Shown one piece after another: positions 22,552-60,899 of a stretch of DNA of 64,000 bases (position 1 is the stretch's first letter; every line of letters starts with the position of its first letter). Where the stretch lies: positions 5,890 to 69,889 of the forward strand of contig JAPLJI010000141.1 in NCBI GenBank assembly GCA_026388655.1, in the 5' to 3' direction. The position numbers were made by a program, and so were the translations under genes. A model generated the notes under the pieces. It did no database searches. It was not told where the DNA came from and saw only the letters and a list, made by a program, of their open reading frames with translations. Origin of the DNA: Pseudomonadota bacterium. GTDB lineage: Bacteria > Desulfobacterota > JAPLJL01.

Positions 22552-22804
22552 AAAATAAGTTGATAGTGAAAAACCTGAAACGATCAGTGGCAAATTTCTA
22601 ATGTCTAATGACGAATTTCTAATCAACCCTTCGACTTCCCCGGTCTAAAGCCCGGGGTATGCTCAGGGTTGATCCTGAGCGAAGTCGATGGATCAATGTC
22701 CAAACTAAAAATGTCTAATCCTAAACTCTAAAAATCAATTAGTCATTGGGATTTAATTAGACATTAGAAATTAGTCATTAGTAATTTTTACGAGGAATTA
22801 TTCA
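22552..22804. repeat. Intercistronic word-repeat hairpin element, copy E2, with a nested REP (22625-22692)
   Basis: aatttctaatgtctaatgacgaatttctaat on the left is mirrored by attagacattagaaattagtcattag on the right. The centre carries ccttcgacttcc...gatcctgagcgaagtcgatgg. Confidence 0.7.
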
Positions 22805-33461: not shown

Positions 33462-33546
33462 ACCCCCGCAATAGGCGGGGGTGAAGAATCTCTTTTCCGA
33501 CAGGTGGCGATGGGAAACCAGATCCTTCGCTGGTGCTCAGGATGAC
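33452..33546. repeat. REP1b composite (GTCATTCTGA ... CTCAGGATGAC)
   Basis: gtcattctgaacccccgcaataggcgggggtgaagaatc ... gtgctcaggatgac. Confidence 0.7.
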
Positions 33547-33594
33547 AATTTAAATGCTTCGAAACGCTCTGACTCATTTTGTTGCCTCGGTTTG

Positions 33595-34367: not shown

Positions 34368-34421
34368 GTAGTCTGCCGATTTATCGGCGTATTAAAACCG
34401 CCCAATGAATTGGGCAGCTAC
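34368..34421. repeat. REP2 element (GTAGTCTGCCGATTTATCGGC ... GCCCAATGAATTGGGCAGCTAC)
   Basis: Two adjacent hairpins bracketed by GTAG/CTAC. There are four clear copies in the window. Confidence 0.8.
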
Positions 34422-36270: not shown

Positions 36271-38070
36271 ATGAAATTTTTCAAAATATTCATTAAATTT
36301 TCCTGGGTATTTTGGTTTATTTTGATTTTCGGTTGCCAGGGTGAAAAAGCCAAGATGCCATCTCCCGCCGCACCTTCAGACCTCGCGGCCACGGCGGTTT
36401 CGACCACCCAGATTGATCTGGCCTGGCAGGATCATACTGACTACGAGGAAGGCTTTCGGATCGAGCGAAAGACCGGGAGCAGCTCCTACGCGCTGCTCGC
36501 CGAGATCCCGCTGAATACGGTTTCTTATTCGGACAACGGTTTGAACCCGGATGCCGCCTATTCCTACCGGGTTTACGCTTTTAACCAGGCCGGTGATTCC
36601 AATTATTCAAACGAGGTTACCGTCCAGACCCTGAGCAATCTCCCCGGCGCCCCCTCCGGGCTCGTGGCCGAGGCGGTTCCCGGCCACCAGATCAATCTTT
36701 CCTGGTCGGCCGGTTCCAACAATCAAGACGGTTTTGAGATTGAACGCAAAGCGGGAGACACGGGCACTTACGTTTCCCTGGGCATATTGGGAGCCGGTGT
36801 TCTTACTTATTCCGACGTTAATCTTACCCCGGGCGTTGATTATTATTACCGGCTCAGGGCTTTCAACCTTTACGGAAATTCCATTTTTTCCAACGAAGCC
36901 TTCGCCCGGGCTCTCGAGCCGGCCAGCCAGGTCTCGGCGGGAGGATTCCATACCTGCGCCTTATTGCCCGGGGGGAAGGTTCAATGCTGGGGGGATAATT
37001 CCTACGGCCAGCTCGGAAATGGGACCACCACCAGCGTGAATGTCCCGGTCCCGGTTTCGGGCTTGACCGAGGAGGTAGCCGCCATCTCGTCCGGGGATTC
37101 CCATACCTGCGTTTTAACCCACTCCGGCGGAGTTAAATGCTGGGGGCGGAACGATGATGGACAGCTGGGAATGGGAAACAGCACCGGTCCGGAATCATGC
37201 TGGGAAAATATCCCTTGCAGTAAGTCCCCGGTAGACGTGACGGGGCTTGGCTCCGGGGTCGCCGTGGTTTCCGCGGGGATGCGGCACACCTGTGCGGTCA
37301 CCGGGGCGGGAAAGGCCGAATGCTGGGGCTATGACGGCTACGGCCAGCTCGGGGATGGAAACAAAACGGGCCGGAGCGCCGTCCCGGTGGACGTGGCGGG
37401 TTTTGCTTCCGGGGTGACCGGGATTTCCGCCGGGGCCTATCATACCTGCGCGGTAACCAGCGTGGGAGCGGTGAAGTGCTGGGGGTGGAATGATTCGGGG
37501 CAGTTGGGGATCGGAACCAACAATGGCCCGGAATACTGCACCGCCGATCTCAGCTGCAGTTCCACGCCCCTCGGCGTATCCGGACTCACCTCGGGATTTA
37601 CGGCCGTTTCCGCCGGCGGATTGCACTCCTGCGCCTTGAATTGCGAGGGAGGAATTCAGTGCTGGGGGTATAACGGGGACGGGGAACTGGGAGACGACCC
37701 CCAGGACAGCTCGTTGAACTTTAACAGTAACCCGGTCTGGGTATTCTACTTTTCCCATACTGGAGTCAAAGCCATTTCCGCGGGGGCTTACCATACCTGC
37801 GCTTTGACCACCGAAGGAGGTTTGAAATGCTGGGGTACTGGTGAAGCCGGTCAGCTGGGGAATGGAACCACGGTCAGATCGAAGATCCCGGAAGCGGTGA
37901 CCGGATTGGCTTCCGGGGTAATCGGGATTTCTTCCGGGGCCTGGCATACCTGCGCTTTAATCGAAGGAGGATGGGCCAAGTGCTGGGGTAATAACGATTA
38001 CGGACAGCTCGGGGATGGGACCCAGACCCTCAGTGACACCCCTGTAGGCGTGGTTGGGATAGGCCCATGA
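36271..38070 (+). CDS. Secreted lipoprotein with 2 fibronectin type III domains and about 7 RCC1-like beta-propeller repeats
   Basis: Lipobox IFGCQ and two repeats of PSxLxAxAVSxxQIxLxWxD...GFxIERK. A reiterated HTCA(L/V)xxxGxxxCWGxNxxGQLG motif is also present. Confidence 0.75.
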   Translation: MKFFKIFIKFSWVFWFILIFGCQGEKAKMPSPAAPSDLAATAVSTTQIDLAWQDHTDYEEGFRIERKTGSSSYALLAEIPLNTVSYSDNGLNPDAAYSYRVYAFNQAGDSNYSNEVTVQTLSNLPGAPSGLVAEAVPGHQINLSWSAGSNNQDGFEIERKAGDTGTYVSLGILGAGVLTYSDVNLTPGVDYYYRLRAFNLYGNSIFSNEAFARALEPASQVSAGGFHTCALLPGGKVQCWGDNSYGQLGNGTTTSVNVPVPVSGLTEEVAAISSGDSHTCVLTHSGGVKCWGRNDDGQLGMGNSTGPESCWENIPCSKSPVDVTGLGSGVAVVSAGMRHTCAVTGAGKAECWGYDGYGQLGDGNKTGRSAVPVDVAGFASGVTGISAGAYHTCAVTSVGAVKCWGWNDSGQLGIGTNNGPEYCTADLSCSSTPLGVSGLTSGFTAVSAGGLHSCALNCEGGIQCWGYNGDGELGDDPQDSSLNFNSNPVWVFYFSHTGVKAISAGAYHTCALTTEGGLKCWGTGEAGQLGNGTTVRSKIPEAVTGLASGVIGISSGAWHTCALIEGGWAKCWGNNDYGQLGDGTQTLSDTPVGVVGIGP

Positions 38071-47609: not shown

Positions 47610-47869
47610 CCAGCCCTTCAACTTTACCCGTTCAATTCCCGGGGTCCGCTCAAAGTTGAGAGGGCGGGATTCTGGCGTTATCGAAGTATTACGAACGGCC
47701 TTTGGGGGCGCAGCCTCCGCCCCCGCGAATGTTTTCTGACGCTTTCTTTAACATCTTAATATTTGACAATAATATTATTATTTATGATCATATTTTAAGC
47801 TAATTTGCCGGAGGGGTTTGTTTTTCTTGACCTTATATTTTTTTCGCACGGGCGAAGGAGACCGCCGAT

Positions 47870-49390
47870 TTGTCAACGCAATTAGGCAAAATCCTGGTTG
47901 TTGATGACGACCCAAGCATCCGGGAAACCCTGGAAGCAGTGCTGGCCGGCCATTATCCCGTTCTCACCGCCCCAGACGGGGAGACCGCTTTATCCCTGGT
48001 TGAAGATGAAGACGTTCGGATTGTCCTTCTGGATATTCTTATGCCCGGGATTGATGGGATTGAGGTTTTACGGAGGATAAAAGCGAGATTCGATGATGTG
48101 GATGTGGTGATGGTGACCATGGTGCGGGAGGTGGAAAAAGCCGTCGCCGCGATGAAACTGGGAGCCTACGACTATATCACCAAGGAAATCAATTACGATG
48201 AGGTTCTGAACCTGGTTAACCGCATTTATGAAAAACAGGAGCAAGCCCGCCAGATTCGTTATCTCACCTGTGAAATCGAATCGGTGATCCCTCAGGATAT
48301 TATCATTGGAGAGAACCCGAAGATGCAGGCGATTTATGATGTGGTTAAACGGGTCTCTTCCCTGCCGGCGACCGTCCTTTTAATGGGGGAAAGCGGCACC
48401 GGCAAGGATCTGATCGCGCGCATGATCCATAAAAACAGCGACCGGTCCGAGGCCCCTTTCGTAACGGTCAACCTGGCTTCCATTCCCAAGGACCTGCTGG
48501 AGAGCACGCTTTTCGGTCATGAAAAGGGCGCTTTCACCGGCGCGCACAAGATGCATTTCGGCAAATTCGAGCTGGCCAACGGGGGCACGATTTTTCTGGA
48601 TGAAATCGGCGATCTGCCCTTCGATCTCCAGGCTAAACTGCTCCGGGTGATCCAATCCGGCGAGATCGAGAGAGTAGGGGGGAGTAAAACCATCCGGATA
48701 GACACCCGGATCATCGCGGCCACCAATCTGGATTTGAAGAAGGCGGTGGAGGCGGGTAAGTTCCGCGAGGATCTTTATTACCGGCTCAACGTCATTCCCA
48801 TCACGCTACCCCCCTTGCGGGAACGATTGGAGGACATTCCGGAACTCGTAAATCTTTTTATCGAAAGGTACAACCGTCGTTTTCGCAAATCGGTGCGGGG
48901 GGTGGCTGCGGAAGTAATCAGACTCTTCTCCCGTTATAACTGGCCCGGGAATATCCGGGAGCTCGAGAATGTAATCGAGCGGATGGTGGCGATAGTACCC
49001 CGGGAGGTTATTACCATCGAGGATCTGCCGATGGAATTCTGCTTTGAGAGTTTTCAGGATTATTCCGCCGAGGCCGGAACCGCCCCCCGCCGGCATCGCT
49101 TCAATACCCTCCGAAAAGCCAAGGAGGCTTTTGAAAGCCAGTATATTCTCCGGGTTTTGGAGAGATGCCGCTGGAACCAGACGGAAACCGCCCGGGAATT
49201 GAACATTAACCTCAGCAGCCTGAAATACCGCATGCGTCGCCTGGGGTTGGAAAAAGCGTCCAAGCCTCACACCACTCGGGGTCGGCCCCTGAAGTATTAT
49301 CGCCACCCGGTAACCGTCCACCGGGTTTTACACGCGAGAAAGAGACGAAAATCATTGGTCCTGCCCGCCGAAGAGGAAAAAAAAGAGTAG
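47870..49390 (+). CDS. NtrC-type sigma-54-dependent response regulator (REC + AAA+ + Fis-type HTH), TTG start
   Basis: ILVVDDDPSIRE, VLLDILMPGIDG, GESGTGKDLIA, the GAFTGA loop (EKGAFTGA), FLDEIGDL and C-terminal NQTETARELNINLSSLKYRMRRLG. Confidence 0.85.
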   Translation: MSTQLGKILVVDDDPSIRETLEAVLAGHYPVLTAPDGETALSLVEDEDVRIVLLDILMPGIDGIEVLRRIKARFDDVDVVMVTMVREVEKAVAAMKLGAYDYITKEINYDEVLNLVNRIYEKQEQARQIRYLTCEIESVIPQDIIIGENPKMQAIYDVVKRVSSLPATVLLMGESGTGKDLIARMIHKNSDRSEAPFVTVNLASIPKDLLESTLFGHEKGAFTGAHKMHFGKFELANGGTIFLDEIGDLPFDLQAKLLRVIQSGEIERVGGSKTIRIDTRIIAATNLDLKKAVEAGKFREDLYYRLNVIPITLPPLRERLEDIPELVNLFIERYNRRFRKSVRGVAAEVIRLFSRYNWPGNIRELENVIERMVAIVPREVITIEDLPMEFCFESFQDYSAEAGTAPRRHRFNTLRKAKEAFESQYILRVLERCRWNQTETARELNINLSSLKYRMRRLGLEKASKPHTTRGRPLKYYRHPVTVHRVLHARKRRKSLVLPAEEEKKE

Positions 49391-49402
49391 GAAACAATCT
49401 CC

Positions 49403-51439
49403 ATGAGGGCAGAGAGGATATTCGCCGGCTACTTTTTCCCAATATTGTTTTTACTGGTTTTAATATTCCCGGTTCGGATTTTCGGCCAGGATAGTTCCGA
49501 TCAGCCGGTCCAACTCACGCCGGTCGAGATTACTTCCACCCGGATTCCCGGTCCGGTGGACGAAGCCACCGATTCGATAACTATCATTAATACGAGGGAG
49601 GTCCGAGCCGATTCCGCTCCTTTAATTTCAGAACAGCTCCGGATGGTTTCGGGGGTGGGGGTACAAACCTCCGGGTCCGTGGGCGAGCAGACGGAGATCC
49701 GGATTCGCGGGAGCGAAAATAATCAAAGCCTGATCCTTTTCGACGGGGTGAGATTGAATTCGCCCTATACCCGGGCCGCCGACCTGGGGGATTTCTTCGT
49801 GGCCGGTTTGGATCGGATCGAGATCGTCCGGGGGGCTTATAGTTCGCTTTACGGGAGCGACGCCATCGGCGGGGTGATCAATCTGATTCCTTATCCCGGC
49901 CGCTCCCTCCTGCATGGAATCAGGAAGGAAAAGGGAATTTCCGCCTGGGCCGAGGGCGGTAGTTTTTCCACTTCTAAGGAACGGGCGGAATTCACCGCCG
50001 CGGGGGAAGAAAGCGCTTTTTCGCTGGCATTGGCCCGGGTGGACAGCGGGGGCCGGAATGCCCGGGACGGTTTTGCCGGTAACCTGGCCACGGGCAAGTT
50101 TCAGGTCCTGATCCCCGGAGGGGTGGAGGTGGGAATCTCCGCCCTTTTCTCCCAGTCGAAAAAGGAGCTTTATCTGGATACCCCTATTTCTTTGTATATT
50201 CAGAACGAGGTGTTGACCCAGGTGAAAGATTCCAATTACTCGGAAGAGAGAGAAACCCTGCTGACGGCGGTTTCTCTCCGGAAGTCGCTTTTTCTGAACG
50301 GAGAATTACAAATCCATGGTTCGGTCCTGCGCGGTGAAGATGATTTGATGAATCCTTCCGATCCCGGATGGACGGATTACCACGCCTCCTGGACGAACGC
50401 GATGAGAAGAGGCGCGGGAATCCAGATGTATTTGACCCCGGTCGAAATGAATTCCGTCCTTTTGGGTACGGAGTACTCCGAAGAAAACGCCATACAGACT
50501 ATGGAAACCAACCTGCCTCTGGCTGGGCAGGGTGATCCGCTATGGTTGAAAATAGACGGTAAACGGATCGAAAGGACGTTTTTTCTTGAGGATCGGTTGA
50601 AGATGATGGGTTTCTTCTATCTGAACGCGGGACTTCGGATGGATTTCAGCTCGGATCGACCCGATTCCGAACCTTTTATCTCCCCCCGCGGTTCGGCGGC
50701 TTTCAAACTGGATAGGTTAGGGACTAAGATCCGGGGAGGTTTTGGGAGGGGTTACCGCAACCCCTCAATTGATGAAAGATTCTTCCCCATAAAGGGGAAT
50801 CCGGAACTCAAGCCGGAAGAAGCCTGGAGCTACGACGCCGGTTTGGAGCAGGAGTTTAAAGAATACGGAATAAAATTTGACCTGACCGGATTCTGGATCA
50901 GATATGAGAATTTGATCGGATTGGTTCCGGATTCTTTCCAGCTGCAGAATTCCGACCTGGCCAAGTCCGATGGTTTGGAGACCAGTTTGGTTTTTCAGCC
51001 GGACAAGCGTATTAAAATAAGATTCGGCTACACCTTTAACCAGATGCGAAAAAGAACTTATGAATTTGATGAAGTTAGCGGACAACCGATGGAGAAGTGG
51101 GTGAACTTTTTCTGGAGACCCGAGCATAGCTTCAGCGGGACGCTGAGCGTTTTGCCGATGGAAAAATTGTATGTCGGACTTTCCTGGGAAAATCGGGGGA
51201 GGTTTGACGAACCTTATGATATTCTCAATCCCGGAGGGACATTGCTGAAGGGGAATAATCCGGGGTTCAACCGGCTCAACCTTTTCTCCGAATATACGGT
51301 TCCGTATTCGCTCCAACCGATGGAAAGCCTGTCGGTGTTTTTCCGGGGAGAAAACCTTCTTAACAAGAAGTATTCCGAGGTTAAAGGTTTCCCTCTTCCC
51401 GGGATTTCTTTTTACGGCGGCATAAATTTAAAGATTTAA
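49403..51439 (+). CDS. TonB-dependent receptor (substrate unknown)
   Basis: Signal peptide, TonB-box-like QLTPVEITSTR, plug motifs (IRIRGSENNQSLILFDGVRLNS, IEIVRGAYSSLYGSDAIGGVINLI) and a C-terminal barrel ending GGINLKI. It starts 12 nt after the activator gene. Confidence 0.8.
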   Translation: MRAERIFAGYFFPILFLLVLIFPVRIFGQDSSDQPVQLTPVEITSTRIPGPVDEATDSITIINTREVRADSAPLISEQLRMVSGVGVQTSGSVGEQTEIRIRGSENNQSLILFDGVRLNSPYTRAADLGDFFVAGLDRIEIVRGAYSSLYGSDAIGGVINLIPYPGRSLLHGIRKEKGISAWAEGGSFSTSKERAEFTAAGEESAFSLALARVDSGGRNARDGFAGNLATGKFQVLIPGGVEVGISALFSQSKKELYLDTPISLYIQNEVLTQVKDSNYSEERETLLTAVSLRKSLFLNGELQIHGSVLRGEDDLMNPSDPGWTDYHASWTNAMRRGAGIQMYLTPVEMNSVLLGTEYSEENAIQTMETNLPLAGQGDPLWLKIDGKRIERTFFLEDRLKMMGFFYLNAGLRMDFSSDRPDSEPFISPRGSAAFKLDRLGTKIRGGFGRGYRNPSIDERFFPIKGNPELKPEEAWSYDAGLEQEFKEYGIKFDLTGFWIRYENLIGLVPDSFQLQNSDLAKSDGLETSLVFQPDKRIKIRFGYTFNQMRKRTYEFDEVSGQPMEKWVNFFWRPEHSFSGTLSVLPMEKLYVGLSWENRGRFDEPYDILNPGGTLLKGNNPGFNRLNLFSEYTVPYSLQPMESLSVFFRGENLLNKKYSEVKGFPLPGISFYGGINLKI

Positions 51440-51458
51440 GGTCTTTTGTATTTAATTT

Positions 51459-51513
51459 GTAGTTTGCCGATTTATCGGCTTAATTAAAACCGCCCAATAA
51501 ATTGGGCAACTAC
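51459..51513. repeat. REP2 element
   Basis: gtagtttgccgatttatcggcttaattaaaaccgcccaataaattgggcaactac. Confidence 0.8.
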
Positions 51514-51651
51514 CCTGAACTCGATTCCAACTTTTTTAAGAATGAACCAAATTTAATTTTTAGATTGAGAACTTTTTTTAATTTACCGGGTCAAAATAGA
51601 TAGAGAATGGGTAATTAGAAATCATCGCCCATCCTTTTTACCTCCTTGTGA

Positions 51652-51680
51652 ATCCCGGGATCAGACCCGGGATTTTTTTT
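51652..51680 (+). terminator. Intrinsic terminator downstream of the TonB-dependent receptor gene
   Basis: atcccggg-atcaga-cccgggat followed by T8. Confidence 0.65.
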
Positions 51681-52004
51681 GCCTAATTAACCGCCTTTTT
51701 CTGGCTAATTATATTTTTCCTTTGATTTCGATTAGTTACGCAAGTATTCAGTTAATATCCATGAAAAAATATCGTTAATTTGTTTAATTAAGAATATTTT
51801 AAGTTTATTTAGGATCATATCTTTTTTCCATTCTGCCGATTTTATCCAAAGCAATCATGAGTTTTTTTCTTATTGCGTATTTGCTCGCAAACATTAAATA
51901 GTTGTGATTTTTTAATATCTTACGTGAAGCAGGAAAAAAGATCGGGGTATAAAAAAGATTGATATTCGAAACAATCCGTAGTGGGAACGTGGTCTTCCAC
52001 CTCT

Positions 52005-52019
52005 TGGTATTGATATTGC
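52005..52019 (+). promoter_or_regulatory. Sigma-54 (-24/-12) promoter candidate TGGTAT-N5-TTGC, 29 nt upstream of the radical SAM start codon
   Basis: tGGtattgatatTGCt with the GG and GC at the canonical 11-nt register. It lies at the end of a 370-nt AT-rich non-coding region, with an NtrC-type activator encoded 2.6 kb upstream. Confidence 0.55.
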
Positions 52020-52047
52020 TTATGTATTCTTACAGGGTTCAACATTT

Positions 52048-53355
52048 ATGGTTCCGTCTAAATTCAATATCATTATTCCGAGCGAGGCTGGAGATTTTAA
52101 ATATACCCTTTATAACACCTTCAGCGACAGCCAGGCCCAGATTGGATCGGATGTCCTGGCGCTTCTCGAACCCGGACATAAAATCGCGGCGAAAAAGAGA
52201 GAAAAACTCCTGGTAAAATACGCCGGGAGTTTAAAAGAGCTGGGATTCCTGGTCGAGAACAGGAAGAATGAAGATAAGGCGGTTAAGGATTGGTTTTATC
52301 AAAAACAAATCAATCAAGAGGAATTGCAAATAACGGTTTTGCCGACCTATAGATGCAATCTGGCCTGTGTATATTGTTTCCAATCTCATATAGACACATC
52401 CGAAAAAAATAAAAATATCAGCAAAAAAACCATCCTACGCCTGGTCAAATGGGCCGGGGAGAGGATGGATTCGATCCATCCCAGAAAGCTTCAACTTTTA
52501 TTTTATGGAGGGGAACCGCTTTGCCGGGAGCGGGACGTCCTGGCTATTTCCACCCTGGTTTCCAACGAAGCCAAGAAAAGGTCAATCGGCCTTTCTATCC
52601 AGATGATCACCAATGGGACCCTTCTCCAAGCCGGTTTTATAAATTCAATGGTTCCGTTGGGGCTGGAATGCGTAAAGATAACAATTGACGGTACTAAAGA
52701 TAAGCATAATCAGCTCAGGATCGGGAAAAAAAGTAAAAGAACATTTGATATTATCATTGGTAATTTATTGAAAACAAAAGATAAATTAAAATTCATCATT
52801 GGCTCGAATTATAACCTCGAAAATTTCAACAGCATTCCAAAATTATACGATCATTTAATCGGTATAGGTTTGCGGAAATCGATTTCGCGGGTGAATTTCA
52901 GGCCCATTTTCCAAGGTGGCACCCGCTACAACTGCGATGTCTGTTCGTTTTCGGAGTCGGACCCATCCACCCAACTCTGGCTTTATGAAGAGGCCCGGAA
53001 AAGAGGGTTGGAAACGATGGATTTACTGTCGTTAGGACCTTGCGGATTTCATAAACGCGACGCGTATACGATTGATCCCGAGGGGAAGGTTTACAAATGC
53101 GAGGGCTTGATCGGGATGGAAGGGGCCGAGTTGGGGGATCTTTATACCGGCGACATTGAGGAAAAATCCGAGAGCTTTATCGCCAGGTTCGACTTATTCG
53201 GGAATTGCGGCGAGTGCGGATACCTTCCGATCTGCGGCGGCGGCTGCCGGTATTGGGCTTATGTAAAAACCGGGGATTTTTTCGGGACGGCCTGCGAAAA
53301 GAAATACTTCGATTTCGTGTCAAAGGAAATCATCCCGGGAAGGGCGATGGCTTAA
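52048..53355 (+). CDS. Radical SAM / SPASM-domain enzyme with a 100-aa N-terminal extension (RRE-like), i.e. a peptide-maturase-type architecture
   Basis: CNLACVYC (Cys103/107/110), GGEPL, and C-terminal SPASM cysteines (CGFHKRDAYTIDPEGKVYKC ... CGECGYLPICGGGCRYWAY). Confidence 0.8.
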   Translation: MVPSKFNIIIPSEAGDFKYTLYNTFSDSQAQIGSDVLALLEPGHKIAAKKREKLLVKYAGSLKELGFLVENRKNEDKAVKDWFYQKQINQEELQITVLPTYRCNLACVYCFQSHIDTSEKNKNISKKTILRLVKWAGERMDSIHPRKLQLLFYGGEPLCRERDVLAISTLVSNEAKKRSIGLSIQMITNGTLLQAGFINSMVPLGLECVKITIDGTKDKHNQLRIGKKSKRTFDIIIGNLLKTKDKLKFIIGSNYNLENFNSIPKLYDHLIGIGLRKSISRVNFRPIFQGGTRYNCDVCSFSESDPSTQLWLYEEARKRGLETMDLLSLGPCGFHKRDAYTIDPEGKVYKCEGLIGMEGAELGDLYTGDIEEKSESFIARFDLFGNCGECGYLPICGGGCRYWAYVKTGDFFGTACEKKYFDFVSKEIIPGRAMA

Positions 53356-53381
53356 TGAGGGTATACAACGGATACCAGAGC

Positions 53382-53435
53382 GCAGTTGCCCGATTTGACG
53401 GGCACATAACGATTGCCGATAAATCGGCGGACTAC
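53382..53435. repeat. REP2 element (inverse orientation), with a partial copy at about 53469-53490
   Basis: gcagttgcccgatttgacgggcacataacgattgccgataaatcggcggactac. Confidence 0.75.
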
Positions 53436-53542
53436 ATAATTCCCCGGGGATTGGGGATTAATAACCGCGTAGTTGTCCGATTTATTTATCCCGAAAAACG
53501 AGGGATCGGGCCGAATTGGGACGGTTTTTTCCAAACCATCGG

Positions 53543-53567
53543 GAGCCGCTTCAGCGGCTCTTTTTTT
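53543..53567 (+). terminator. Intrinsic terminator 190 nt downstream of the radical SAM gene
   Basis: GAGCCGC-ttca-GCGGCTC followed by T7. Confidence 0.7.
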
Positions 53568-53669
53568 GGGGTAAAGGAGCCCCTTCCTGGCCGGATTTGC
53601 CCGGGCTCGGGCAGGCTGAGGGCTTCTTTCTCGGGTTATGAAAATCATTAAGAAAGGAGGTGAAGACGA

Positions 53670-53744
53670 ATGAAGATTATCCGAAAAGGAAACCGGCGGA
53701 GTAACCCAGGCACCAATCGTTGCGTGTGGGTAATTATGCAGTGA
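53670..53744 (+). CDS. 24-codon ORF with a perfect Shine-Dalgarno: candidate precursor or signal peptide MKIIRKGNRRSNPGTNRCVWVIMQ
   Basis: AAGGAGGTGA (10-nt match to the anti-SD) ends 7 nt before the ATG, the strongest RBS seen in the window. It lies between the radical SAM/SPASM gene and a peptide-binding SBP gene. A 9-bp-stem hairpin follows at 53777-53808. There is no homology evidence. Confidence 0.35.
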   Translation: MKIIRKGNRRSNPGTNRCVWVIMQ

Positions 53745-53862
53745 TAATGATAGGAAAAAGCAGGGATTGAAAGATTCGGTTTGAATTTCAAATCTGGTTT
53801 TCAAACCGGAAGAAAAATGATAAATTTGATAGGCGAATTGTAGTTCGCCTTATTTTTATCTG

Positions 53863-55470
53863 ATGAATATTTCCCCCAGAAAGATAATAGCATCGATAAT
53901 TTTATCACTGCTTTTAATTTCATCCTGCCATCGGAAAAGTGATCATGAAAAAAAGGATTATGGAGATTGGGTATATTTCGGCGTTTATGACAAATTGACC
54001 GGAATAGATCCGCTCAAGGATGTTTCCACTCTATCTTCCATACTTTCCGATGTTATTTTTAACGGGTTGGTGGGGATTGATGAAAATGGGGAGATTGTTC
54101 CAGATCTGGCTAAAGGTTGGGAATGGTCGGAGGATAAGAAAAGTATTAATTTTTATTTGAAAGAAGGAATAAAATTTCACGATGGGTTTGTTTATGATGC
54201 AAGTGATGTAGATTTTACCTTCCGGCAAATCCTAGCCCCGTCATATTCTGGAAGCGGTAACTATGATTTGACCATGGTTGAGAATGTTAAGGTATTGGAT
54301 AATCAAACCATTTCTTTCGGTCTTAAGGGGATATCAAATCTCTTTCTTTTTAACTCGATAATTCAGATTCTCCCTCGTCATATTTTTGAGAATGATATTG
54401 GCGGCAGGGAGAGATTTTTATGGAACCCAATCGGCACGGGCCCATTTAAAGTGGTACGTTTGTCCGGATCGGAGGCTGTTTTGGAAGCAAATCGAGATTA
54501 CTTTAAGGGAAGGCCTTTTTTAGACGGGATAGTCGTAAAATCCTATAAAAACCAGGACGAGGTTTGGGCGAGACTTTTAACGGAGGAGGTCGATTTTTGT
54601 TTGCCCTTATCCCCGGGCCAGGTTGATTTCATGAAAAACAATACAAATATCAAAATTTATTCATATCTTTCCCCTTATTATTATCTTTTGGCTTTCAACG
54701 GGAAAAATCCATTATTTCAAAGTAGAAAGGTGAGGGTTGCTTTAAATCAGGCAATAGATCGCGATGAGATCATCGAAAAAATCCTGAATAATCACGGGAG
54801 ATTATGCTCAGGCACGGTTTACCCTTATTCATGGGCGTTTGATCCGGAACTTAAACCTTATTCATATGACCCGGCGACCGCCTTAAAAATGATTATGGAA
54901 GAGGGTTGGATAAGGGATAAGAACGGTATTCTTAAGAAGAATGGCAAGCCATTTGAATTTACGGTTTTGATTATCTCGGGAGAAAATCAATCAGAGAATT
55001 TAGTATTGTCAATTGAAAAATATCTTGCCGAAATAGGAATTAAAATTAAGATCCAGCCGGTGACCATGGGTGAACTGAATCGTAAGTATTTGTTTTCTAA
55101 AAAGTTTGAAGCGGCTCTATTCAGTTTTGATTCCGGGATTCATCCGGGATATTTAAATTACCGGATATGGCATTCCTCTCAGATACAAAAAGGTTTGAAT
55201 GTTTTTTCCTATCAAAATGCGGAAGTGGACGAAGATTTGGAACTTGTTCTGCGGGTCGGAGATAGGATCGAAGAAAAGAAATATTATTATAAATTTCAAA
55301 GAGAAATATTCGACGATCCGCCCGGGGTTTTCCTTTTCTGGAAAGAAGAAATGGTTCCGATTCATAAAAGATTTCGAGGAATTAAAGCCGGACCCGAGAA
55401 ATTGTTTGTATCCATTCCGGAATGGTGGGTTCCGAAGAATGAACAAAAATATAAAATCGGTCCAAATTGA
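53863..55470 (+). CDS. Family-5 (OppA/DppA/NikA-type) periplasmic peptide/metallophore-binding lipoprotein, with no cognate permease or ATPase genes nearby
   Basis: Lipobox LLISSC, with family-5 motifs (GIDPLKD, FHDGFVYDASDVDFTF, GTGPFKVV, NRDYFKGRPFLDGIVV, FEFTVLI). The family call is from the motif pattern only. Confidence 0.7.
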   Translation: MNISPRKIIASIILSLLLISSCHRKSDHEKKDYGDWVYFGVYDKLTGIDPLKDVSTLSSILSDVIFNGLVGIDENGEIVPDLAKGWEWSEDKKSINFYLKEGIKFHDGFVYDASDVDFTFRQILAPSYSGSGNYDLTMVENVKVLDNQTISFGLKGISNLFLFNSIIQILPRHIFENDIGGRERFLWNPIGTGPFKVVRLSGSEAVLEANRDYFKGRPFLDGIVVKSYKNQDEVWARLLTEEVDFCLPLSPGQVDFMKNNTNIKIYSYLSPYYYLLAFNGKNPLFQSRKVRVALNQAIDRDEIIEKILNNHGRLCSGTVYPYSWAFDPELKPYSYDPATALKMIMEEGWIRDKNGILKKNGKPFEFTVLIISGENQSENLVLSIEKYLAEIGIKIKIQPVTMGELNRKYLFSKKFEAALFSFDSGIHPGYLNYRIWHSSQIQKGLNVFSYQNAEVDEDLELVLRVGDRIEEKKYYYKFQREIFDDPPGVFLFWKEEMVPIHKRFRGIKAGPEKLFVSIPEWWVPKNEQKYKIGPN

Positions 55471-55582
55471 ACTTGCAATTCCTCGTGGTCTTGCCACGGC
55501 GTTACCTTATTTTCGTCATTCCGCACTTGATGCGGAATCCAGTTATTTTGTTTTTCTGGATTCCTGCTTCCGCAGGAATGAC
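55464..55582. repeat. Composite element: REP3 (ATTGAACTTGCAATTCCTCGTGGTCTTGCCACGGCGTTACC) plus two REP1 hairpins
   Basis: A near-identical composite occurs at 63709-63857. The REP1 copies are gtcattccgcacttgatgcggaatccag and ctggattcctgcttccgcaggaatgac. Confidence 0.75.
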
Positions 55583-55606
55583 AAATAAAATGACATAAAT
55601 ATAAAA

Positions 55607-57352
55607 ATGAAACGTCTTTCTTTAAAATTTATTTTACTCCTTTTGGTGGTTGCTTTGATTCCTATTATTTTATTCGGGGCCATTTCGATTTACTCCTCCT
55701 TAAGGGTGACTTACCAAAGGGTCATGCAGGGGAATCAAAACGTGACCAGACGGGCCGCCAGTGAGATAGAAACCTATCTGAAAAACTCGATTGATACGAT
55801 GAGAACCCTGGCTGATAACCTGAGCAACGTAAATCTAAATTCCGCGCAAAAAGAAAGGATTATTAAAAATTATGTTATAGATTACGGGAGGTTGGAAGAA
55901 GTTTTGTTGATCGATCAAGAAACGAATGAAAGGATATCCACCCGTCCGGAAACGGATTTTAAAACGATTTTAGATTCGGATGAATTCAAGATCTCGGCGG
56001 GAGGGAAGATATCCCTCTCCGACATAATCATCTCGTCTTCCCTGGCCCCGACAATGAAGATCTTGGTTCCGATTTTCCATCTCGGTAAAGTGCGGGGCGC
56101 GTTAATCGGGAATTTCAATCTCATTGATATGTGGAGTCTGGTTGATTCGATCAAGATCGGGAACACCGGTTTCGCCTATGTGGTTACCGATTCCGGGCGG
56201 TTGATCGCCCATGGAAACGATAACCGCAAAGCGGATGTTCTTCGAGGGATTAACATTGCCGGCCTGCCGCCGGTCAAATCGGTTCTCCAGGGGGATTCCC
56301 GGCCGGTTATATACCGAGAAAAAGGGGGGACAAAGTCGTTGTCGGTGGCGTCTCCGGTTATTCTCCCGGACGGTCGGAGATGGGGGGTGGTGATTGAGCA
56401 ATCCACCCGGGAAGCCTTCCGGGCCGCTTACCTCCTAGCCTTTGAATTGGCTGGACTGGTTATAGTGTTCCTGGTGTTGATGAGCCTGGTCGGATATTTC
56501 GGGGGAAAGGGTATTGCCAAGCCTCTGGGCGAACTTGTTTTCGCCACGGGAATGATCGCCCGGGGAGATTTGAATGTCCGCGTCCGGATAAAAAGTCGGG
56601 ACGAACTGGCCGATCTGGGTGATTCATTCAATAAAATGGCGGAAAAGCTCGGCGATCTTACCGAAGAGATTCGGAGAAAGGAGAGAGTGGCGACCTTCGG
56701 GCGGATTGCCGCCGGCCTGGTGCACGATCTCCGCCACCCGATTCAGAACATTCAAAATTCCTCTAACCTGATTGTTCAGAAACCGGATGATCCGCAAATC
56801 CGAAAGGTATTTAAAAATACCGTAGAGAGGGAGTTTACTAATATCAACGAATTTCTGGATCGCTTGCGAAATCTAACCAAACCCTCCCGGATTCAAATCG
56901 TTGAAATCGAGGTTAACGGGTTTTTATCCGAAATATTGAAAATATATCGCAATGATTCATCCTTGAATAAGCTGGAATGGATTGCGGAGCTCGAGCCGGA
57001 GAACCCCAGGATCAGGGCCGACCGTTTTGTTTTGGAACGGGCCTGTAAAAATATCCTCACCAACGCGATTGAAGCGGTCGGTGGGCAAGGGAAAATAAAG
57101 ATAACCACCAGAGTGGACAACCATTTGGTTTTTATAGAATTTTTAGATAGCGGCCCGGGTATTTCTCCTGAAAGACTAAAGAACATTTTTGAGGATTTCT
57201 CCACCACGAAACGGAGAGGATTAGGTCTCGGATTGGCCACGGCCAAAAAGCTGACCGAGGAAATTGGCGGACGGATCGGGATAGATAGTCAGCCAGGGCA
57301 AGGCACCAAGGCAAAGCTCATCTTTCCCGTCACAACCGACACCAACACTTAA
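55607..57352 (+). CDS. Sensor histidine kinase: TM, periplasmic Cache-like domain, TM, HAMP, NtrB/AtoS-type HisKA, HATPase
   Basis: Two TM segments flank a 260-aa periplasmic region. HAMP (PLGELVFATGMIARGDLNVRV), H-box FGRIAAGLVHDLRHPIQN, N-box NILTNAIEA and G-boxes DSGPGI and GLGLGLA follow. Confidence 0.85.
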   Translation: MKRLSLKFILLLLVVALIPIILFGAISIYSSLRVTYQRVMQGNQNVTRRAASEIETYLKNSIDTMRTLADNLSNVNLNSAQKERIIKNYVIDYGRLEEVLLIDQETNERISTRPETDFKTILDSDEFKISAGGKISLSDIIISSSLAPTMKILVPIFHLGKVRGALIGNFNLIDMWSLVDSIKIGNTGFAYVVTDSGRLIAHGNDNRKADVLRGINIAGLPPVKSVLQGDSRPVIYREKGGTKSLSVASPVILPDGRRWGVVIEQSTREAFRAAYLLAFELAGLVIVFLVLMSLVGYFGGKGIAKPLGELVFATGMIARGDLNVRVRIKSRDELADLGDSFNKMAEKLGDLTEEIRRKERVATFGRIAAGLVHDLRHPIQNIQNSSNLIVQKPDDPQIRKVFKNTVEREFTNINEFLDRLRNLTKPSRIQIVEIEVNGFLSEILKIYRNDSSLNKLEWIAELEPENPRIRADRFVLERACKNILTNAIEAVGGQGKIKITTRVDNHLVFIEFLDSGPGISPERLKNIFEDFSTTKRRGLGLGLATAKKLTEEIGGRIGIDSQPGQGTKAKLIFPVTTDTNT

Positions 57353-57585
57353 TTAATTTCGAGTTTCTGGTTTCACCTGCCCAAGCCGACGGATCAAGTC
57401 GGCCAGGAAATATCGAGCTAAAACCCACTCTTTTTTGAAGCTTTCCAGCCTTTTAGTTTTTACGCGTTTTTCTCCTTAATTGTTTTTTTCCCAAAGTAAC
57501 CGGTTTCCGGTTATTGGCTACTTGTAATGCCTCAACGATGCCATACGTGTTTAAATTTCGAGATCGCTGCCAAATCACTAAAAAT

Positions 57586-57684
57586 GTCATCCTGAGCGAT
57601 AGCGAAGGATCTGGTTTTTCTGAGTTTTCCAACGCAAAAAAAACGAGATTCTTCGCCCTTCGGCAGGCTCAGGGCTCAGAATGA
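57586..57684. repeat. REP1b composite, itself bracketed by a 13-nt inverted repeat (TGTAATGCCTCAA at 57523-57535 / TTGAGGCATTACA at 57708-57720)
   Basis: gtcatcctgagcgatagcgaaggatc ... ggctcagggctcagaatgac. The outer arms were read directly. Confidence 0.7.
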
Positions 57685-57755
57685 CAAAAAGAAAGTATGT
57701 CATTTGCTTGAGGCATTACAGCTACTGGCATCTTTTCTTGGTTTTTTACCATTCC

Positions 57756-57770
57756 TGGCACGGATTTTGC
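57756..57770 (+). promoter_or_regulatory. Sigma-54 promoter, perfect consensus TGGCACG-N4-TTGC
   Basis: ctGGCACGgattTTGCtt, 46 nt upstream of the ATG at 57816. Confidence 0.75.
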
Positions 57771-57815
57771 TTGGTAAATACAGAGGGCAACCATTTTTTA
57801 AGAAAGGGGCTTTAT

Positions 57816-58079
57816 ATGGCACGTATATTATCCAGAACAATCCGGCTGGGGCCTGAACTTTCAGGGCTTGAGGTCCGAACTTATTACCACCAGCTGGCTA
57901 ATGGGGAATCTTTTTTCAGCTCAGAGGCGGAGTTAAGCCCGGGGGACCGGATTGTGGTGGATGGTCGTTCGGCATCTCAGTCCGAGCGCCGTTTGCAGGG
58001 ATTGATTCCGGTCAGTCTTATCTGCCGGGAGGTGGAGGGGAGGAAAAATGGTTCAAAAACACCGCGTTCTAATGATTGA
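57816..58079 (+). CDS. Small hypothetical protein (87 aa), first gene behind the sigma-54 promoter
   Basis: MARILSRTIRLGPELSGLEVRTYYHQLANGESFF... with an AAAGGGG RBS. It overlaps the receiver gene by 32 nt. No domain recognised. Confidence 0.35.
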   Translation: MARILSRTIRLGPELSGLEVRTYYHQLANGESFFSSEAELSPGDRIVVDGRSASQSERRLQGLIPVSLICREVEGRKNGSKTPRSND

Positions 58080-58464
58080 TGACGACCAACTGATTCTCCG
58101 GGCCTTTTCCCGCCTGCTTAATGATGGGGATTATGAGCTCCTGACCGTTTCGGATGGAGAGGGAGCAATCAGGATTCTCCAAGAGAAACCGGTTTCGGTG
58201 GTTATTTCCGATGAGATCTTAACCAGCGACGAGGGTTCTCCGGTTCTGGAAGCCTTGATGTCGAAGCATTCGTGTACCCAGAGAATAATATTTACCGGGT
58301 GGCCCCGGGAGACACTTTGCTGGGAAAAGATCAAGGCTTGCAAGCCATTCGCCGTGGTGGCCAAGCCCGATATTGATAACCGGCTCCGGAAGGCCATCCG
58401 CGCGGCGATTAAAGAATACGAAAACAGTCCGCTCTTTAGCCGGGGAATTAATATTTATTATTAA
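58048..58464 (+). CDS. Stand-alone receiver-domain response regulator
   Basis: VLMIDDDQLILRAF, VVISDE (phospho-acceptor Asp), IIFTG and KP. A strong GGAGGGGAGG RBS is present. Confidence 0.75.
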   Translation: MVQKHRVLMIDDDQLILRAFSRLLNDGDYELLTVSDGEGAIRILQEKPVSVVISDEILTSDEGSPVLEALMSKHSCTQRIIFTGWPRETLCWEKIKACKPFAVVAKPDIDNRLRKAIRAAIKEYENSPLFSRGINIYY

Positions 58465-58466
58465 TA

Positions 58467-58516
58467 ATCCTGAGCATACCCCGAGCTTGGGACCGGTGAA
58501 GTCGAAGGGTTGACCG
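58467..58516. repeat. REP (atcctgagcataccccg...gaagtcgaagggttg), inverse copy of the element at 22625-22692
   Basis: Its reverse complement aligns with ccttcgacttc...ggggtatgctcagg at 22625. Confidence 0.7.
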
Positions 58517-58883
58517 TTTTATCTCCCGGTAATTACTGGGAAATCCACATCCCAAAATTACAATTCGGTTTCCGAAACCCGGGATTTTTTGTACATTTTT
58601 CACTTCTTCCTTGTGTTCTTATCCTAAAATCGATTTAATGGATCAAGCACTGCAATATGGTGACTTGACAAAGGTTAAATTTTATTTTAGCTTCTCCGAA
58701 AAAATCCAAGAATATTTTTATGTTTGATAATTTGGAATGGGAGGTGAAAATTAGATGAAGAAGATTTCGGGAAATCACAGCAATGCCTGGCCGCCTTAGG
58801 GATCGGAAATCGTATTTTTTTCCGCGGGAAGTTTTTTAGGAGCTTTAACGTTTTATTAACCAATTTGTAGGAGGGATTCAGAA

Positions 58884-59309
58884 ATGAAAAAGGTTATGTA
58901 TGTTTCTCTGGCTTTGGGATTAGCTCTGGCTTTTGCATGCGCGAAGAAACCCGGCACAATCGAAGGAAAAGCCACCCTGGATGGCGCCGCGGCCGGTAAT
59001 GCCGGGATCGCAATTTCCGTGGCGGGAACAACCCTGACTGCTACCACTGATGACGCGGGTGCTTACAAAATCGAAGGGGTAGTCGCCAGCCAGTACACCC
59101 TGGAAGCGAAGAAGGAAGGATACGATTCCAAGCCGTTGGTGGGTATCGTTGTCGAAGCGGGGAAAACCCTCAGCGGACAGGATATCAATCTTACCAAGAT
59201 CGTTCCTCCGGCTCCGGAAGGTGCCACCGCGCCGGCTGGCGCCACCGCTCCGATTGGCGCCCCTGCGGCTCCGGTTCCGGCCGCTCCGGCGAAGCCCGCT
59301 GGCAAATAA
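58884..59309 (+). CDS. Lipoprotein with carboxypeptidase-regulatory-like (CarboxypepD_reg) beta-sandwich and an Ala/Pro-rich tail
   Basis: Lipobox LAFAC, GKATLDG...AGIAISVAGTTLTATTDDAGAYKIEGV...YTLEAKKEGY, and tail PAPEGATAPAGATAPIGAPAAPVPAAPAKPAGK. Confidence 0.6.
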   Translation: MKKVMYVSLALGLALAFACAKKPGTIEGKATLDGAAAGNAGIAISVAGTTLTATTDDAGAYKIEGVVASQYTLEAKKEGYDSKPLVGIVVEAGKTLSGQDINLTKIVPPAPEGATAPAGATAPIGAPAAPVPAAPAKPAGK

Positions 59310-59375: not shown

Positions 59376-59430
59376 ATCCCGAAAAAAGCATTTGAATCCA
59401 AATCACTGTTTTTCACGACCGGATCTTTTT

Positions 59431-59486
59431 GTAGTCTGCCGATTCATCGGCGGTTTTTAAAAGCGCCCGATAAATCGGGCGACTAC
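59431..59486. repeat. REP2 element
   Basis: gtagtctgccgattcatcggcggtttttaaaagcgcccgataaatcgggcgactac. Confidence 0.8.
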
Positions 59487-59567
59487 ATGACTACCTGGGA
59501 ATACCAACTGTATTTTTCGGGTTTACGGTGCGCCGGGCAGGCCACATTCAGCTATCAGTAACAAGCT

Positions 59568-60899
59568 TTATTTTTTTGATTCCATCCGCGGAAGAACCAC
59601 GTTATTGACGAACTGCGTGATCTGGTCCTGGATGGATTCCACCGGGGTGACCCGGGGGTCGAACATGTCGAACTCGAATACGAGCAGGGGCATCCCGATC
59701 TCCCGGGACTTTTCCTTAAGCAGGCCGAGCCCGCCCCAGGCGTGCTTGCAGGCGACATGGCCGGCGAAAATACCGAAGTCGGCTTTATATTCCCGGCAGA
59801 GGGTGAGGTAGTCGTTCAGGTACCATTCAATCGGTCCCTTGAATTGCCGGGACATCGGCATGACCCGGATGAAGCGGTGGGCTAGGCCCCGAATCATGCT
59901 TTCCCGGGAGCTGACATCAATCATGCCTTCCGGGGCGTGATAGCCGAAAAGGTCCATCGGGATAACCATTTTCAACTCGCTTTCCATCCAGTCGTAGAAT
60001 TGCAGGTCAAACCAGACCGGGTCCTGGTACCAGACCGCCCGGATTTTTTCGCCTTCCACCGCGGCCTCGCCCCGCTCGCTCCTTTCCCGGGCTTCCGCGG
60101 CCAGCTCCGCGGCGGTGACCACGCCGGTTTCGGTCCCGGCAAAGGTGATGAAAAGGGGCACCATCAGGCAGATGATCTTGGATATCTGCGGGCAGGGGAC
60201 CGCCTTCCGGAATTCATTCCAGGCCAGGAGGTTTTCACTCATCCGGTTCGCCCGCAGGCAGATTTCCCGGAAGCGCTCCCAGCTGAATTTCCTACCGGTA
60301 TGTTTTTCCAGGAAGGGAATGGCGTCCCGGATCTGCCGGGCCACATATTCAACTTCCCTTTCTCCATAAAGGTAAGGGATGTCGATCAGAAACATGGGGG
60401 CTTCCGCAATCTCGGCCACCGAGGGCAGGGCGGCCAGCTGGGAATCACAGGGGGTATTGACCCCCAGGATACAGGAAGGCTTCGGCATGATGCCTTTCAA
60501 GACCGCTCCCACCCCGGCCTTGTCCACCGAGCACACCTCGGGGGGGAGACCGTGGGCCTCGGCCCGGTCGATGTAATCCAGGGTGAAGTTGACGTCGCCG
60601 ACAATGTTCTGGAGGGCGGGATAGGCCTCGATCGGGATATTGTGAACGTCTTCCAGGGCGAGGATCAGCTCCGGACTCATTCCGAGGTTGTACCAGACCA
60701 CCGGCTGCTTATCGTCGAAGGGCCGGCAGAGATTCTCGACCAGCTGGGAGAAAGCCTTGAAGTAGGCGTTCAGGCCCCGCGAGGCGGGGTCTTCTTTGTA
60801 AATCTCGAGCATCCCCGTGATTCCTTCGTGGATTGCTTCCAGGTCCTCAAAGCGTTCTTTGCCGAGAATGGCCATTAGCACCCTCCGGGGAAATCCCAA
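59568..60899 (-). CDS. 2-hydroxyacyl-CoA dehydratase / benzoyl-CoA reductase subunit-family protein (HGD-D family), large subunit
   Basis: Family-typical layout with conserved Cys positions (GVNTPCDS, HVACKHAWG). It is clustered with a BcrAD/BadFG-type activator ATPase. The call is from memory of the family. Confidence 0.6.
   Translation of the reverse strand: MGFPRRVLMAILGKERFEDLEAIHEGITGMLEIYKEDPASRGLNAYFKAFSQLVENLCRPFDDKQPVVWYNLGMSPELILALEDVHNIPIEAYPALQNIVGDVNFTLDYIDRAEAHGLPPEVCSVDKAGVGAVLKGIMPKPSCILGVNTPCDSQLAALPSVAEIAEAPMFLIDIPYLYGEREVEYVARQIRDAIPFLEKHTGRKFSWERFREICLRANRMSENLLAWNEFRKAVPCPQISKIICLMVPLFITFAGTETGVVTAAELAAEARERSERGEAAVEGEKIRAVWYQDPVWFDLQFYDWMESELKMVIPMDLFGYHAPEGMIDVSSRESMIRGLAHRFIRVMPMSRQFKGPIEWYLNDYLTLCREYKADFGIFAGHVACKHAWGGLGLLKEKSREIGMPLLVFEFDMFDPRVTPVESIQDQITQFVNNVVLPRMESKK

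Follow-up and report, generated by a model that had tools for sequence, protein, structure and literature searches.

A candidate peptide-signal cassette built on a radical SAM maturase, an orphan binding protein and a sensor kinase in a Desulfobacterota contig

Orphan periplasmic binding proteins that stand beside a membrane kinase, with no permease of the ATP-binding cassette (ABC) type, are found in the LuxP/LuxQ, TorT/TorS and AioX/AioS/AioR systems, and AioXSR ends in a sigma-54 activator. In Firmicutes, agr (AgrB/D/C/A) and comQXPA unite a small precursor, a dedicated modifying enzyme and a kinase with its response regulator in an autoinducing system, and the hallmark of agr and comQXP pherotypes is the joint exchange of signal-making and signal-sensing genes within conserved flanks. 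To our knowledge, it is mainly in Gram-positive bacteria that dedicated quorum sensing by modified peptides is established, and diderm bacteria are known chiefly for small-molecule signals. Here we describe a gene cluster in a 64,000-nucleotide (nt) stretch of DNA from a Desulfobacterota bacterium (contig JAPLJI010000141.1, positions 5,890 to 69,889; hereafter the window), which encodes a radical S-adenosylmethionine (SAM) peptide maturase, a 24-codon precursor peptide, an orphan binding protein and a sensor kinase. We consider the chances evenly balanced that this cassette is a self-contained autoinducing signal system based on a ribosomally synthesized peptide that is post-translationally modified (RiPP).

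By analogy, the window system would work like agr or comQXP joined to a binding-protein-dependent kinase of the LuxPQ or AioXSR type. It shares with agr and comQXPA the gene roles named above and a hypervariable maker-plus-sensor block that is exchanged between strains. However, the parts are unrelated, and the window system belongs to a host with an outer membrane and would sense through a separate periplasmic binding protein, with a sigma-54 output and an optional TonB-dependent receptor. LuxPQ, TorTS and AioXSR sense small molecules made elsewhere, whereas the presumed ligand of the window system is encoded and matured in the same cassette.

The first-pass annotation of this DNA, made from the letters alone, had likened the cluster to methanobactin operons. 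The functional likeness holds: MbnT and MbnE also pair a TonB-dependent receptor with an orphan family-5 binding protein beside a RiPP gene set. However, the window cluster has no enzyme of the MbnB/MbnC type, each of its proteins falls into an unrelated family or none, its regulator is of another type, its binding protein is nearest to the oligopeptide binder AppA, and the receptor is an accessory that most of its relatives dispense with. Judged by these family assignments, the window cluster is not a methanobactin system.

The nearest named relatives, which the same annotation overlooked, are the systems around TIGR04280, "geopeptide radical SAM maturase", a hypothetical equivalog defined by a hidden Markov model alone. 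Their enzymes form a sister clade in the tree and have the same build, namely a RiPP recognition element (RRE), a radical SAM domain and a SPASM domain. Their precursors carry a basic K-x-I-x-V/I-L-KK-G leader with Cys about 10 residues later, and their genes follow the same logic of receptor, orphan binding protein, Cache-HAMP kinase and sigma-54 activator. They differ in that the peptide of true members has CC in the loci compared, whereas that of the window has a single Cys and those of its clade usually have C-x-W, and in that a PF04392 binding protein and an sCache_4 sensor stand where the window has a family-5 protein (PF00496) and a dCache_1 sensor. No publication on geopeptides, TIGR04280 or this gene combination was found in a search that did not reach most subscription journals. 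To that extent the statement that no described system has this composition stands, with TIGR04280 as the nearest named relative.

The maturase and its precursor peptide

The cluster was compared with 80 genome loci and further metagenome loci by tblastn with the window proteins. Clade counts refer to 28 non-redundant loci, outgroup counts to ~40 loci and counts for the geopeptide sister clade to 20 loci; L001 and L003 are the loci closest to the window. Among the NCBIfam models, TIGR04280 matched the window maturase best, at 242.9 bits, below its cutoff of 400. The clade relatives of the enzyme score 240-330 bits with this model and true members 525-644. By the family's own cutoff the window maturase is not a TIGR04280 member, and its sequence places it in an unnamed sister clade of that family. 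The next matches were CefB (185 bits), TIGR04463, Clo7bot and PapB. All named models score below cutoff on the enzyme; where the description of one of these next matches states a substrate, it is a Cys-rich or ranthipeptide precursor. The best matches (geopeptide, CefB, TIGR04463 and PapB) are thus RiPP maturases, and no characterised non-RiPP family takes in the enzyme. CteB of thermocellin, PapB, CefB and TIGR04463 share with it an N-terminal RRE, the CxxxCxxC motif, a full set of SPASM cysteines and an adjacent Cys-containing precursor, but its identity to CteB is only 17-18%. A metagenome scan with the maturase returned only copies that are 99% identical.

The cysteines of the CxxxCxxC motif (C103, C107 and C110) are invariant across 27 homologues. 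Nine Cys lie in the C-terminal SPASM region, of which C332, C351, C387, C390, C396, C400 and C416 are invariant in the 27 homologues; the window enzyme has C296 and C299 as well. When the profile of these homologues was compared with the PDB, CteB was found at 4e-43. The AlphaFold2 model of the maturase (predicted local distance difference test, pLDDT, 86; predicted template modelling score, pTM, 0.86) orders the protein as an RRE-like domain, a radical SAM barrel and a SPASM domain. Its N-terminus consists of strands at residues 7-11, 19-23 and 28-32 followed by three helices that end at residue 87, which is the topology of an RRE. Foldseek matched the model over its full length to CteB (template modelling (TM) score 0.69, 446 columns) and TigE (TM score 0.70), and to the anaerobic sulfatase-maturating enzyme (anSME) through the core only. 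The C-terminal fold resembles the C-terminal domains of CteB, anSME and SuiB. Profile and predicted fold together indicate that the enzyme is a CteB-type RRE, radical SAM and SPASM peptide maturase. The CteB structure reportedly comes from a study of thioether formation, and a paper on cyclopropyl synthases of the radical SAM type reportedly deals with TigE. Because TigE matches as well as CteB, the fold leaves the reaction undecided.

The possibility that the enzyme is an anaerobic sulfatase maturase was rejected. The anSME model TIGR03942 scores 66.9 bits on it against a cutoff of 349, an RRE is present, and a scan of the cluster genes and their neighbours revealed no sulfatase. These results, together with the full-length match to CteB, bear out the earlier proposal that the architecture is that of peptide maturases and not of sulfatase maturases.

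The 24-codon open reading frame (ORF) between the maturase and binding-protein genes encodes MKIIRKGNRRSNPGTNRCVWVIMQ and is preceded, 6 nt upstream, by the perfect Shine-Dalgarno (SD) sequence GGAGGTGA. The precursors of L001 (MKIIRKGTRKDDRKTTFCAWAVIH) and L003 (MKIIKKGTRRNSRSVNRCVWVISH) are likewise 24 codons long and have the same SD sequence, and a fourth variant was found in L093. In a DNA alignment of the window, L001 and L003, the SD sequence and the leader codons are invariant, the middle of the gene varies in frame, the TGC and TGG codons are kept and conservation ends after the stop codon. The same peptide type adjoins the maturase in 26 loci. In distant loci the peptides have 21-36 codons and are encoded directly beside the enzyme, upstream or downstream; examples are MKITVIKKAATTRKPQSFCPWIQDEITEKKN from Acidobacteriota, MKVKVLKKGVTPERVCLWFKY and MKLVIMRKGSDDARNATTRGCCIPGAFRRRLPN. 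The shared design is an MK-I/V-x-I/V-I/V-KK-G/A leader, a linker of ~8-10 residues and then Cys. This Cys is the sole invariant residue in an alignment of 28 peptides, most of which have an aromatic residue at +2 (often C-x-W). The peptides are very short and strongly basic, and none of 20 candidates, among them peptides of true geopeptide loci, matched a relevant family in NCBIfam. The view that the ORF is merely an upstream leader ORF of the binding-protein gene was rejected, since the peptide gene keeps to the side of the maturase gene and not of the binding-protein gene (L005, L023, L027, L031 and L043). This comparative evidence indicates that the 24-codon ORF, noted in the first pass for its perfect SD sequence, is a real gene.

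Recurrence and exchange of the cassette

In a neighbour-joining tree the loci form one clade, sister to the true TIGR04280 clade, with members in Acidobacteriota, Omnitrophota, Planctomycetota, Auribacterota and unclassified lineages. A family-5 solute-binding protein gene was found in 26/28 clade loci and a dCache kinase gene in 24/28, with absences mostly at contig ends; each was found in 0/~40 outgroup loci. An NtrC-type activator (~50% identical) is encoded beside the maturase in 22/28 clade loci; it was not counted in the outgroup, where the few matches are weak and mostly at the level of the receiver. The receptor is present in only 7/28 clade loci, in ~13/20 geopeptide loci and in 0/~40 outgroup loci, and is therefore an accessory in the clade. 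The expectation that the flanking genes would recur thus held for the binding protein, kinase, activator and small ORF, but not for the receptor.

Gene order is variable. In L005 it is receptor, binding protein, kinase, receiver, maturase and peptide, and in L023 activator, receptor, binding protein, peptide, maturase, ABC exporter and kinase. The peptide gene stays beside the enzyme gene throughout, and the kinase gene follows the family-5 gene in the loci examined. Since the outer flanks differ between loci (L001 and L003, for example), the cassette appears to travel as a unit. A fortuitous adjacency with a spurious small ORF is hardly credible in view of the same gene set and peptide type in 28 loci from several phyla, with differing outer flanks and absence from the outgroups; on this point the first-pass annotation had judged correctly.

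The true geopeptide loci, from Nitrospirota and Desulfobulbales, encode a receptor, a CC-type peptide, the maturase, a PF04392 binding protein, an sCache_4-HAMP kinase and a sigma-54 activator. Because a non-homologous binding protein and another Cache sensor fill the same positions there, the sister clade argues that sensing through a binding protein is a selected function and not an accident of the neighbourhood.

Near-isogenic strains were found to carry different alleles of the cassette. Between the window and L001 the cassette has 74-78% nt identity, whereas the genes downstream are 98-100% identical, with a synonymous divergence (dS) of 0-0.02. The exchanged block extends from just past the receptor stop codon to just past the kinase stop codon (~51.5-57.3 kb); values for the single genes are given in Table 1. 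Each allele is present in at least two separate assembly records, and the contigs of both carry names from the same Ga03152xx series of the Joint Genome Institute (JGI). The G+C content of the cassette is low, ~0.40 versus 0.55-0.60, in all three lineages. The receptor gene is a mosaic with respect to L001 1998-3995, with 79-84% identity in the 5' part and 100% identity over the last 900 nt, which places a recombination breakpoint inside the gene near 50350.

The exchange is consistent with co-adapted specificity of signal and sensor and does not prove it, because it is a single event seen for one allele pair on a shared background. It also bears on whether the product could be a cofactor or redox molecule inside the cell, similar to pyrroloquinoline quinone (PQQ) or mycofactocin, which binding protein, kinase and activator would only regulate in response to an unrelated ligand in the periplasm, for instance a peptide from the environment. 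A 24-amino-acid (aa) precursor of PQQ-like size, a SPASM-type enzyme and the lack of an exporter in the window would suit such a product. However, maturase, peptide, binding protein and kinase were replaced together, pairwise identities of maturase and binding protein are correlated across loci (r = 0.83), and non-homologous pairs of binding protein and kinase hold the same position in the sister clade. No analogues of PqqB/C or MftD/E and no dependent dehydrogenase were found, and we regard a cofactor as improbable.

Allelic cassettes are also common for bacteriocin loci, and nisin and subtilin induce their own synthesis through a kinase. The peptide might thus be an antimicrobial RiPP of the microcin or sactibiotic type that induces itself through the kinase, in line with enzyme relatives that make sactipeptides and ranthipeptides, some of them antibiotics, and with the ABC exporter of L023. 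Such a product is nevertheless distinctly unlikely, as neither the window nor most loci revealed an immunity gene, a dedicated exporter or a leader protease, the producers encode both a receptor for taking up what they make and a protein to bind it with high affinity, and the peptides are so short and strongly basic.

Sensing genes, promoters and other features of the window

All genes and motifs of the first-pass list were recovered on the + strand by ORF listing and profile searches (Table 1). The solved structure closest to the binding protein is the nonapeptide binder AppA of B. subtilis (3e-61); NikA reached only ~1e-18, and no chain named MbnE was among the best 60 PDB sequence matches listed. 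As had been proposed, the protein is a family-5 lipoprotein without an importer partner: the window cluster revealed no ABC permease or ATPase, and none is listed in the annotated homologous loci. The kinase has the predicted Cache-HAMP architecture, with two transmembrane segments around a periplasmic domain of ~245 aa, and the best named relatives of its transmitter are AtoS and ZraS. The closest solved relative of the receptor is the BtuB plug.

These assignments bear on whether the peptide is a metallophore. Its Cys would chelate a metal, the receptor would re-import the complex, the family-5 protein would hold it, and kinase and activator would raise production, much as PfeS/PfeR sense enterobactin to raise production. 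The presence of a receptor with an orphan family-5 binding protein, the invariant Cys, the frequent receptors of the sister clade and the nickel and metallophore binders within family 5, although these score weaker than AppA, all speak for it. However, the loci examined revealed no importer of the inner membrane, no regulator that responds to metals and no metal enzyme, the receptor is infrequent in the clade, and the binding protein is far nearer to AppA than to NikA. Allelic diversification of peptide and sensor would also be unexpected for a chelator, and we consider a metallophore unlikely.

Table 1 Features of the cluster, with positions in the window and divergence from L001
Feature	Position	Strand	Basis or remark	dS, window vs L001	Protein identity, window vs L001
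Sigma-70-like promoter TTGACA-17-GATCAT	47763-47791	+	Predicted from its motif by consensus scan, 10/12 matches		
NtrC/AtoC-type sigma-54 activator	47870-49390	+	Receiver, Sigma54_activat (AAA+) and HTH_8 domains; Pfam/NCBIfam		
TonB-dependent outer-membrane receptor	49403-51439	+	Plug and barrel domains		
Exchangeable allelic cassette (P1, maturase, peptide, binding protein, kinase)	51549-57329	+	Window vs L001		
AT-rich upstream regulatory region	51680-52004	+	Conserved; candidate activator and integration host factor (IHF) sites, putative function		
P1, sigma-54 -24/-12 promoter TGGTATTGATATTGCT	52005-52020	+	Exact consensus; 43 nt ahead of maturase ATG		
RRE, radical SAM and SPASM peptide maturase	52048-53355	+	NCBIfam, PDB profile, AlphaFold2/Foldseek	1.3	73%
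Precursor peptide ORF, 24 codons	53670-53744	+	SD sequence and comparative conservation	0.39 (dN/dS ~1)	46% (most diverged product)
Orphan family-5 solute-binding lipoprotein	53863-55470	+	SBP_bac_5 9e-75, lipobox LISSC	Saturated, >6	65%
dCache_1-HAMP-HisKA-HATPase kinase	55607-57352	+	Pfam/NCBIfam	1.06	78%
P2, sigma-54 -24/-12 promoter TGGCACGGATTTTGCT	57756-57771	+	Exact consensus		
Conserved 87-aa protein	57816-58079	+	Corrected gene model		
Stand-alone CheY-like receiver	58048-58464	+	Response_reg 4e-12		

The motif TGGYAY-N5-TTGCW has exactly two matches in the 64 kb, P1 and P2, both on the + strand, where 0.08 are expected. P1 keeps its position in L001 and L003, and P2 is kept there together with the 5' untranslated region (UTR) and the SD sequence that follow it. 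Across the clade, -24/-12-like sites were found within 300 nt upstream of the maturase and peptide unit in 17/28 loci, against 0.6 expected from the background rate within the same loci. As first described, the gap between receptor and maturase is AT-rich and ends in a promoter; it is 608 nt long with a G+C content of 0.32. The promoter region at 51640-52050 has a mean column identity of 84% across the window, L001 and L003, which exceeds that of the adjacent coding DNA. Two CTAATTA boxes (51683-51689 and 51705-51711), 22 nt apart and ~300 nt upstream of P1, are kept in all three and are candidate activator sites. The activator carries a GAFTGA motif at residue 220, which implies rpoN without showing it; no RpoN-box motif was found within the 64-kb window.

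The second promoter, with a small protein and a receiver behind it, was present as first described, but the small protein needed correction. P2 sits inside the mechanical 132-aa ORF (57681-58079), so the gene is the shorter one of 87 aa. Homologues from other metagenomes, all of 87 aa and 80-91% identical, support this model together with the conserved SD sequence and 5' UTR. The protein has no Pfam or NCBIfam match, and its AlphaFold model (pLDDT 52) is too poor to classify the fold. Relatives of ~30% identity are encoded directly after the kinase in the Acidobacteriota loci L016, L019, L022, L025 and L048, and for this reason the 87-aa protein is probably a real component of the cluster. The motif PGDRI-(V/I)-(V/L)-D...LVP is kept from the window lineage to Acidobacteriota, always after the kinase. 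The receiver gene overlaps the 87-aa gene, so both are probably co-transcribed from P2. Asp-rich motifs of the receiver, assigned by eye, fit an acidic pocket and a phospho-acceptor.

Next to P2, four tandem (T/C)GAAACC heptads abut the -24 element on its upstream side in L001 (~10150-10200) and L003 (~15440-15487), and an inverted set of GGTTTC repeats lies just past the kinase stop codon. The window retains the left set only (57357-57380). These repeats could form a binding array for a regulator.

The cluster follows the housekeeping genes tRNA, tilS, ftsH, folP and cdaA. The encoded FtsH is 94% identical to that of an unclassified metagenome-assembled genome, and its identity to sequences of named phyla does not exceed 71%. 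A terminator-like hairpin (47703-47725) sets the sigma-70-like promoter of the activator-receptor pair apart from cdaA, and the receptor gene starts 12 nt past the activator stop codon, in agreement with the first-pass annotation. In motif scans, further hairpins were found between the receptor gene and P1 (51650-51675, terminator-like) and between the peptide and binding-protein genes (53831-53850). We infer the transcript order sigma-70-like promoter, activator and receptor; hairpin; P1 and maturase; hairpin; peptide; hairpin; binding protein and kinase; P2, 87-aa protein and receiver. An Rfam scan of the intergenic regions revealed no riboswitch or small RNA.

Palindromes headed by GTAG, similar to repetitive extragenic palindromic sequences and bacterial interspersed mosaic elements (REP/BIME-like), occur in inverted pairs at 34368-34421, 51459-51513, 53382-53485 and 59431-59486 (9 matches versus 0.85 expected). 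The 315-nt spacer between maturase and peptide genes appears to be a REP-containing insertion, as the peptide gene of L001 begins only 18 nt past the maturase stop codon. The inverted repeats that flank the maturase (51458-51479 and 53415-53436) were rejected as transposon ends or activator sites, being REP/BIME-like and present also at 34.4 and 59.4 kb. Two stretches with palindrome pairs, 51440-51548 and 59376-59572, find no counterpart in the alignment with contig L092, which is 97-99.6% identical, and thus look like strain insertion polymorphisms; the repeats are polymorphic between near-identical strains.

Short repeats resembling miniature inverted-repeat transposable elements, such as GTCATCCTGAGCGATAGCGAAGGATC, are dispersed in the intergenic DNA of the window, for instance at 57585-57617 (copy at 33515-33547), 55556-55584 (copy at 3847-3875) and 58469-58513 (copy at 22623-22667). 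A putative 14-codon ORF, MKKISGNHSNAWPP (58756-58800, +), shares its strong SD sequence (GGAGGTGAA) with the precursor and lies ~80 nt ahead of a gene for a 141-aa protein with a CarboxypepD_reg domain (58884-59309); only near-identical copies of the ORF were compared. Elsewhere in the window, a cobalamin riboswitch (95 bits; 15506-15712, +) was found upstream of a series of ORFs on the + strand (15843-20483). A 599-aa protein (36271-38070, +) combines two fibronectin type III domains with seven RCC1 repeats, which is unusual in bacteria.

A candidate signalling circuit and its meaning

A circuit can be drawn from what was observed: the genes present, the conservation of the peptide, the RRE/SPASM architecture, the promoter motifs, the conserved co-occurrence of the genes and the swap of alleles. 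Its chemistry, secretion, binding, phosphotransfer partners and autoinduction are predicted as follows. The RRE domain of the radical SAM/SPASM enzyme would bind the 24-aa peptide through its MKIIRKG leader, and the enzyme would modify it at or from the invariant Cys18, most likely by a thioether-type cross-link to a nearby residue, for which Trp20 is a candidate. The modified product would exit the cell and would re-enter the periplasm, in the window with the help of the TonB-dependent receptor; exporters are encoded in some other loci, of the ABC type in L023 and of the major facilitator superfamily in L015 and L026. The orphan family-5 lipoprotein would capture it there, and the loaded binding protein would dock on the periplasmic dCache domain and activate the kinase. 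The kinase would then phosphorylate the NtrC-type activator, which would fire P1 ahead of maturase, peptide, binding protein and kinase and so close a positive feedback. The activator may also fire P2 and thereby the genes behind it, for the 87-aa protein and the receiver. As strain-specific alleles, signal and sensor would diversify together.

Several observations weigh against this circuit. A terminator-like hairpin (53541-53562) separates maturase and peptide genes in the window, and the window cluster encodes neither an exporter nor a leader protease. The receptor lies outside the exchanged cassette, the divergence of the kinase is not concentrated in its sensor domain (80% vs 76% identity), and one allelic swap does not prove selection. 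A shared activator site for P1 and P2 was rejected, as no common 7-9-mer was found in their upstream regions; control of both promoters by one activator is therefore unsupported.

The first-pass annotation had left open whether a secreted peptide would act as a metallophore or as an autoinducer. Signalling is better supported by the loci compared than uptake, because the loci examined revealed no importer at the inner membrane and the genes of maker and sensor were exchanged together. This favours the autoinducer half of that proposal over the metallophore half.

More broadly, we put forward with some doubt that the window cassette and the geopeptide systems of Geobacter-like bacteria, Nitrospirota and Desulfobulbales form a large, pherotype-forming superfamily of RiPP quorum sensing in diderms. 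Its members would use a radical-SAM-modified Cys peptide as autoinducer, an orphan binding protein and a Cache kinase as receptor, a sigma-54 output and, optionally, a TonB-dependent receptor for crossing the outer membrane. If the cassette works as proposed, abundant lineages of soil and sediment, most of them uncultured (Acidobacteriota, Nitrospirota, Omnitrophota and Desulfobacterota), would use private peptide languages, and the orphan "geopeptide" family would have a function. The cassette would then also bring a new reaction of a radical SAM enzyme, on a substrate as small as 24 aa, and a portable, orthogonal set of peptide, sensor and promoter.

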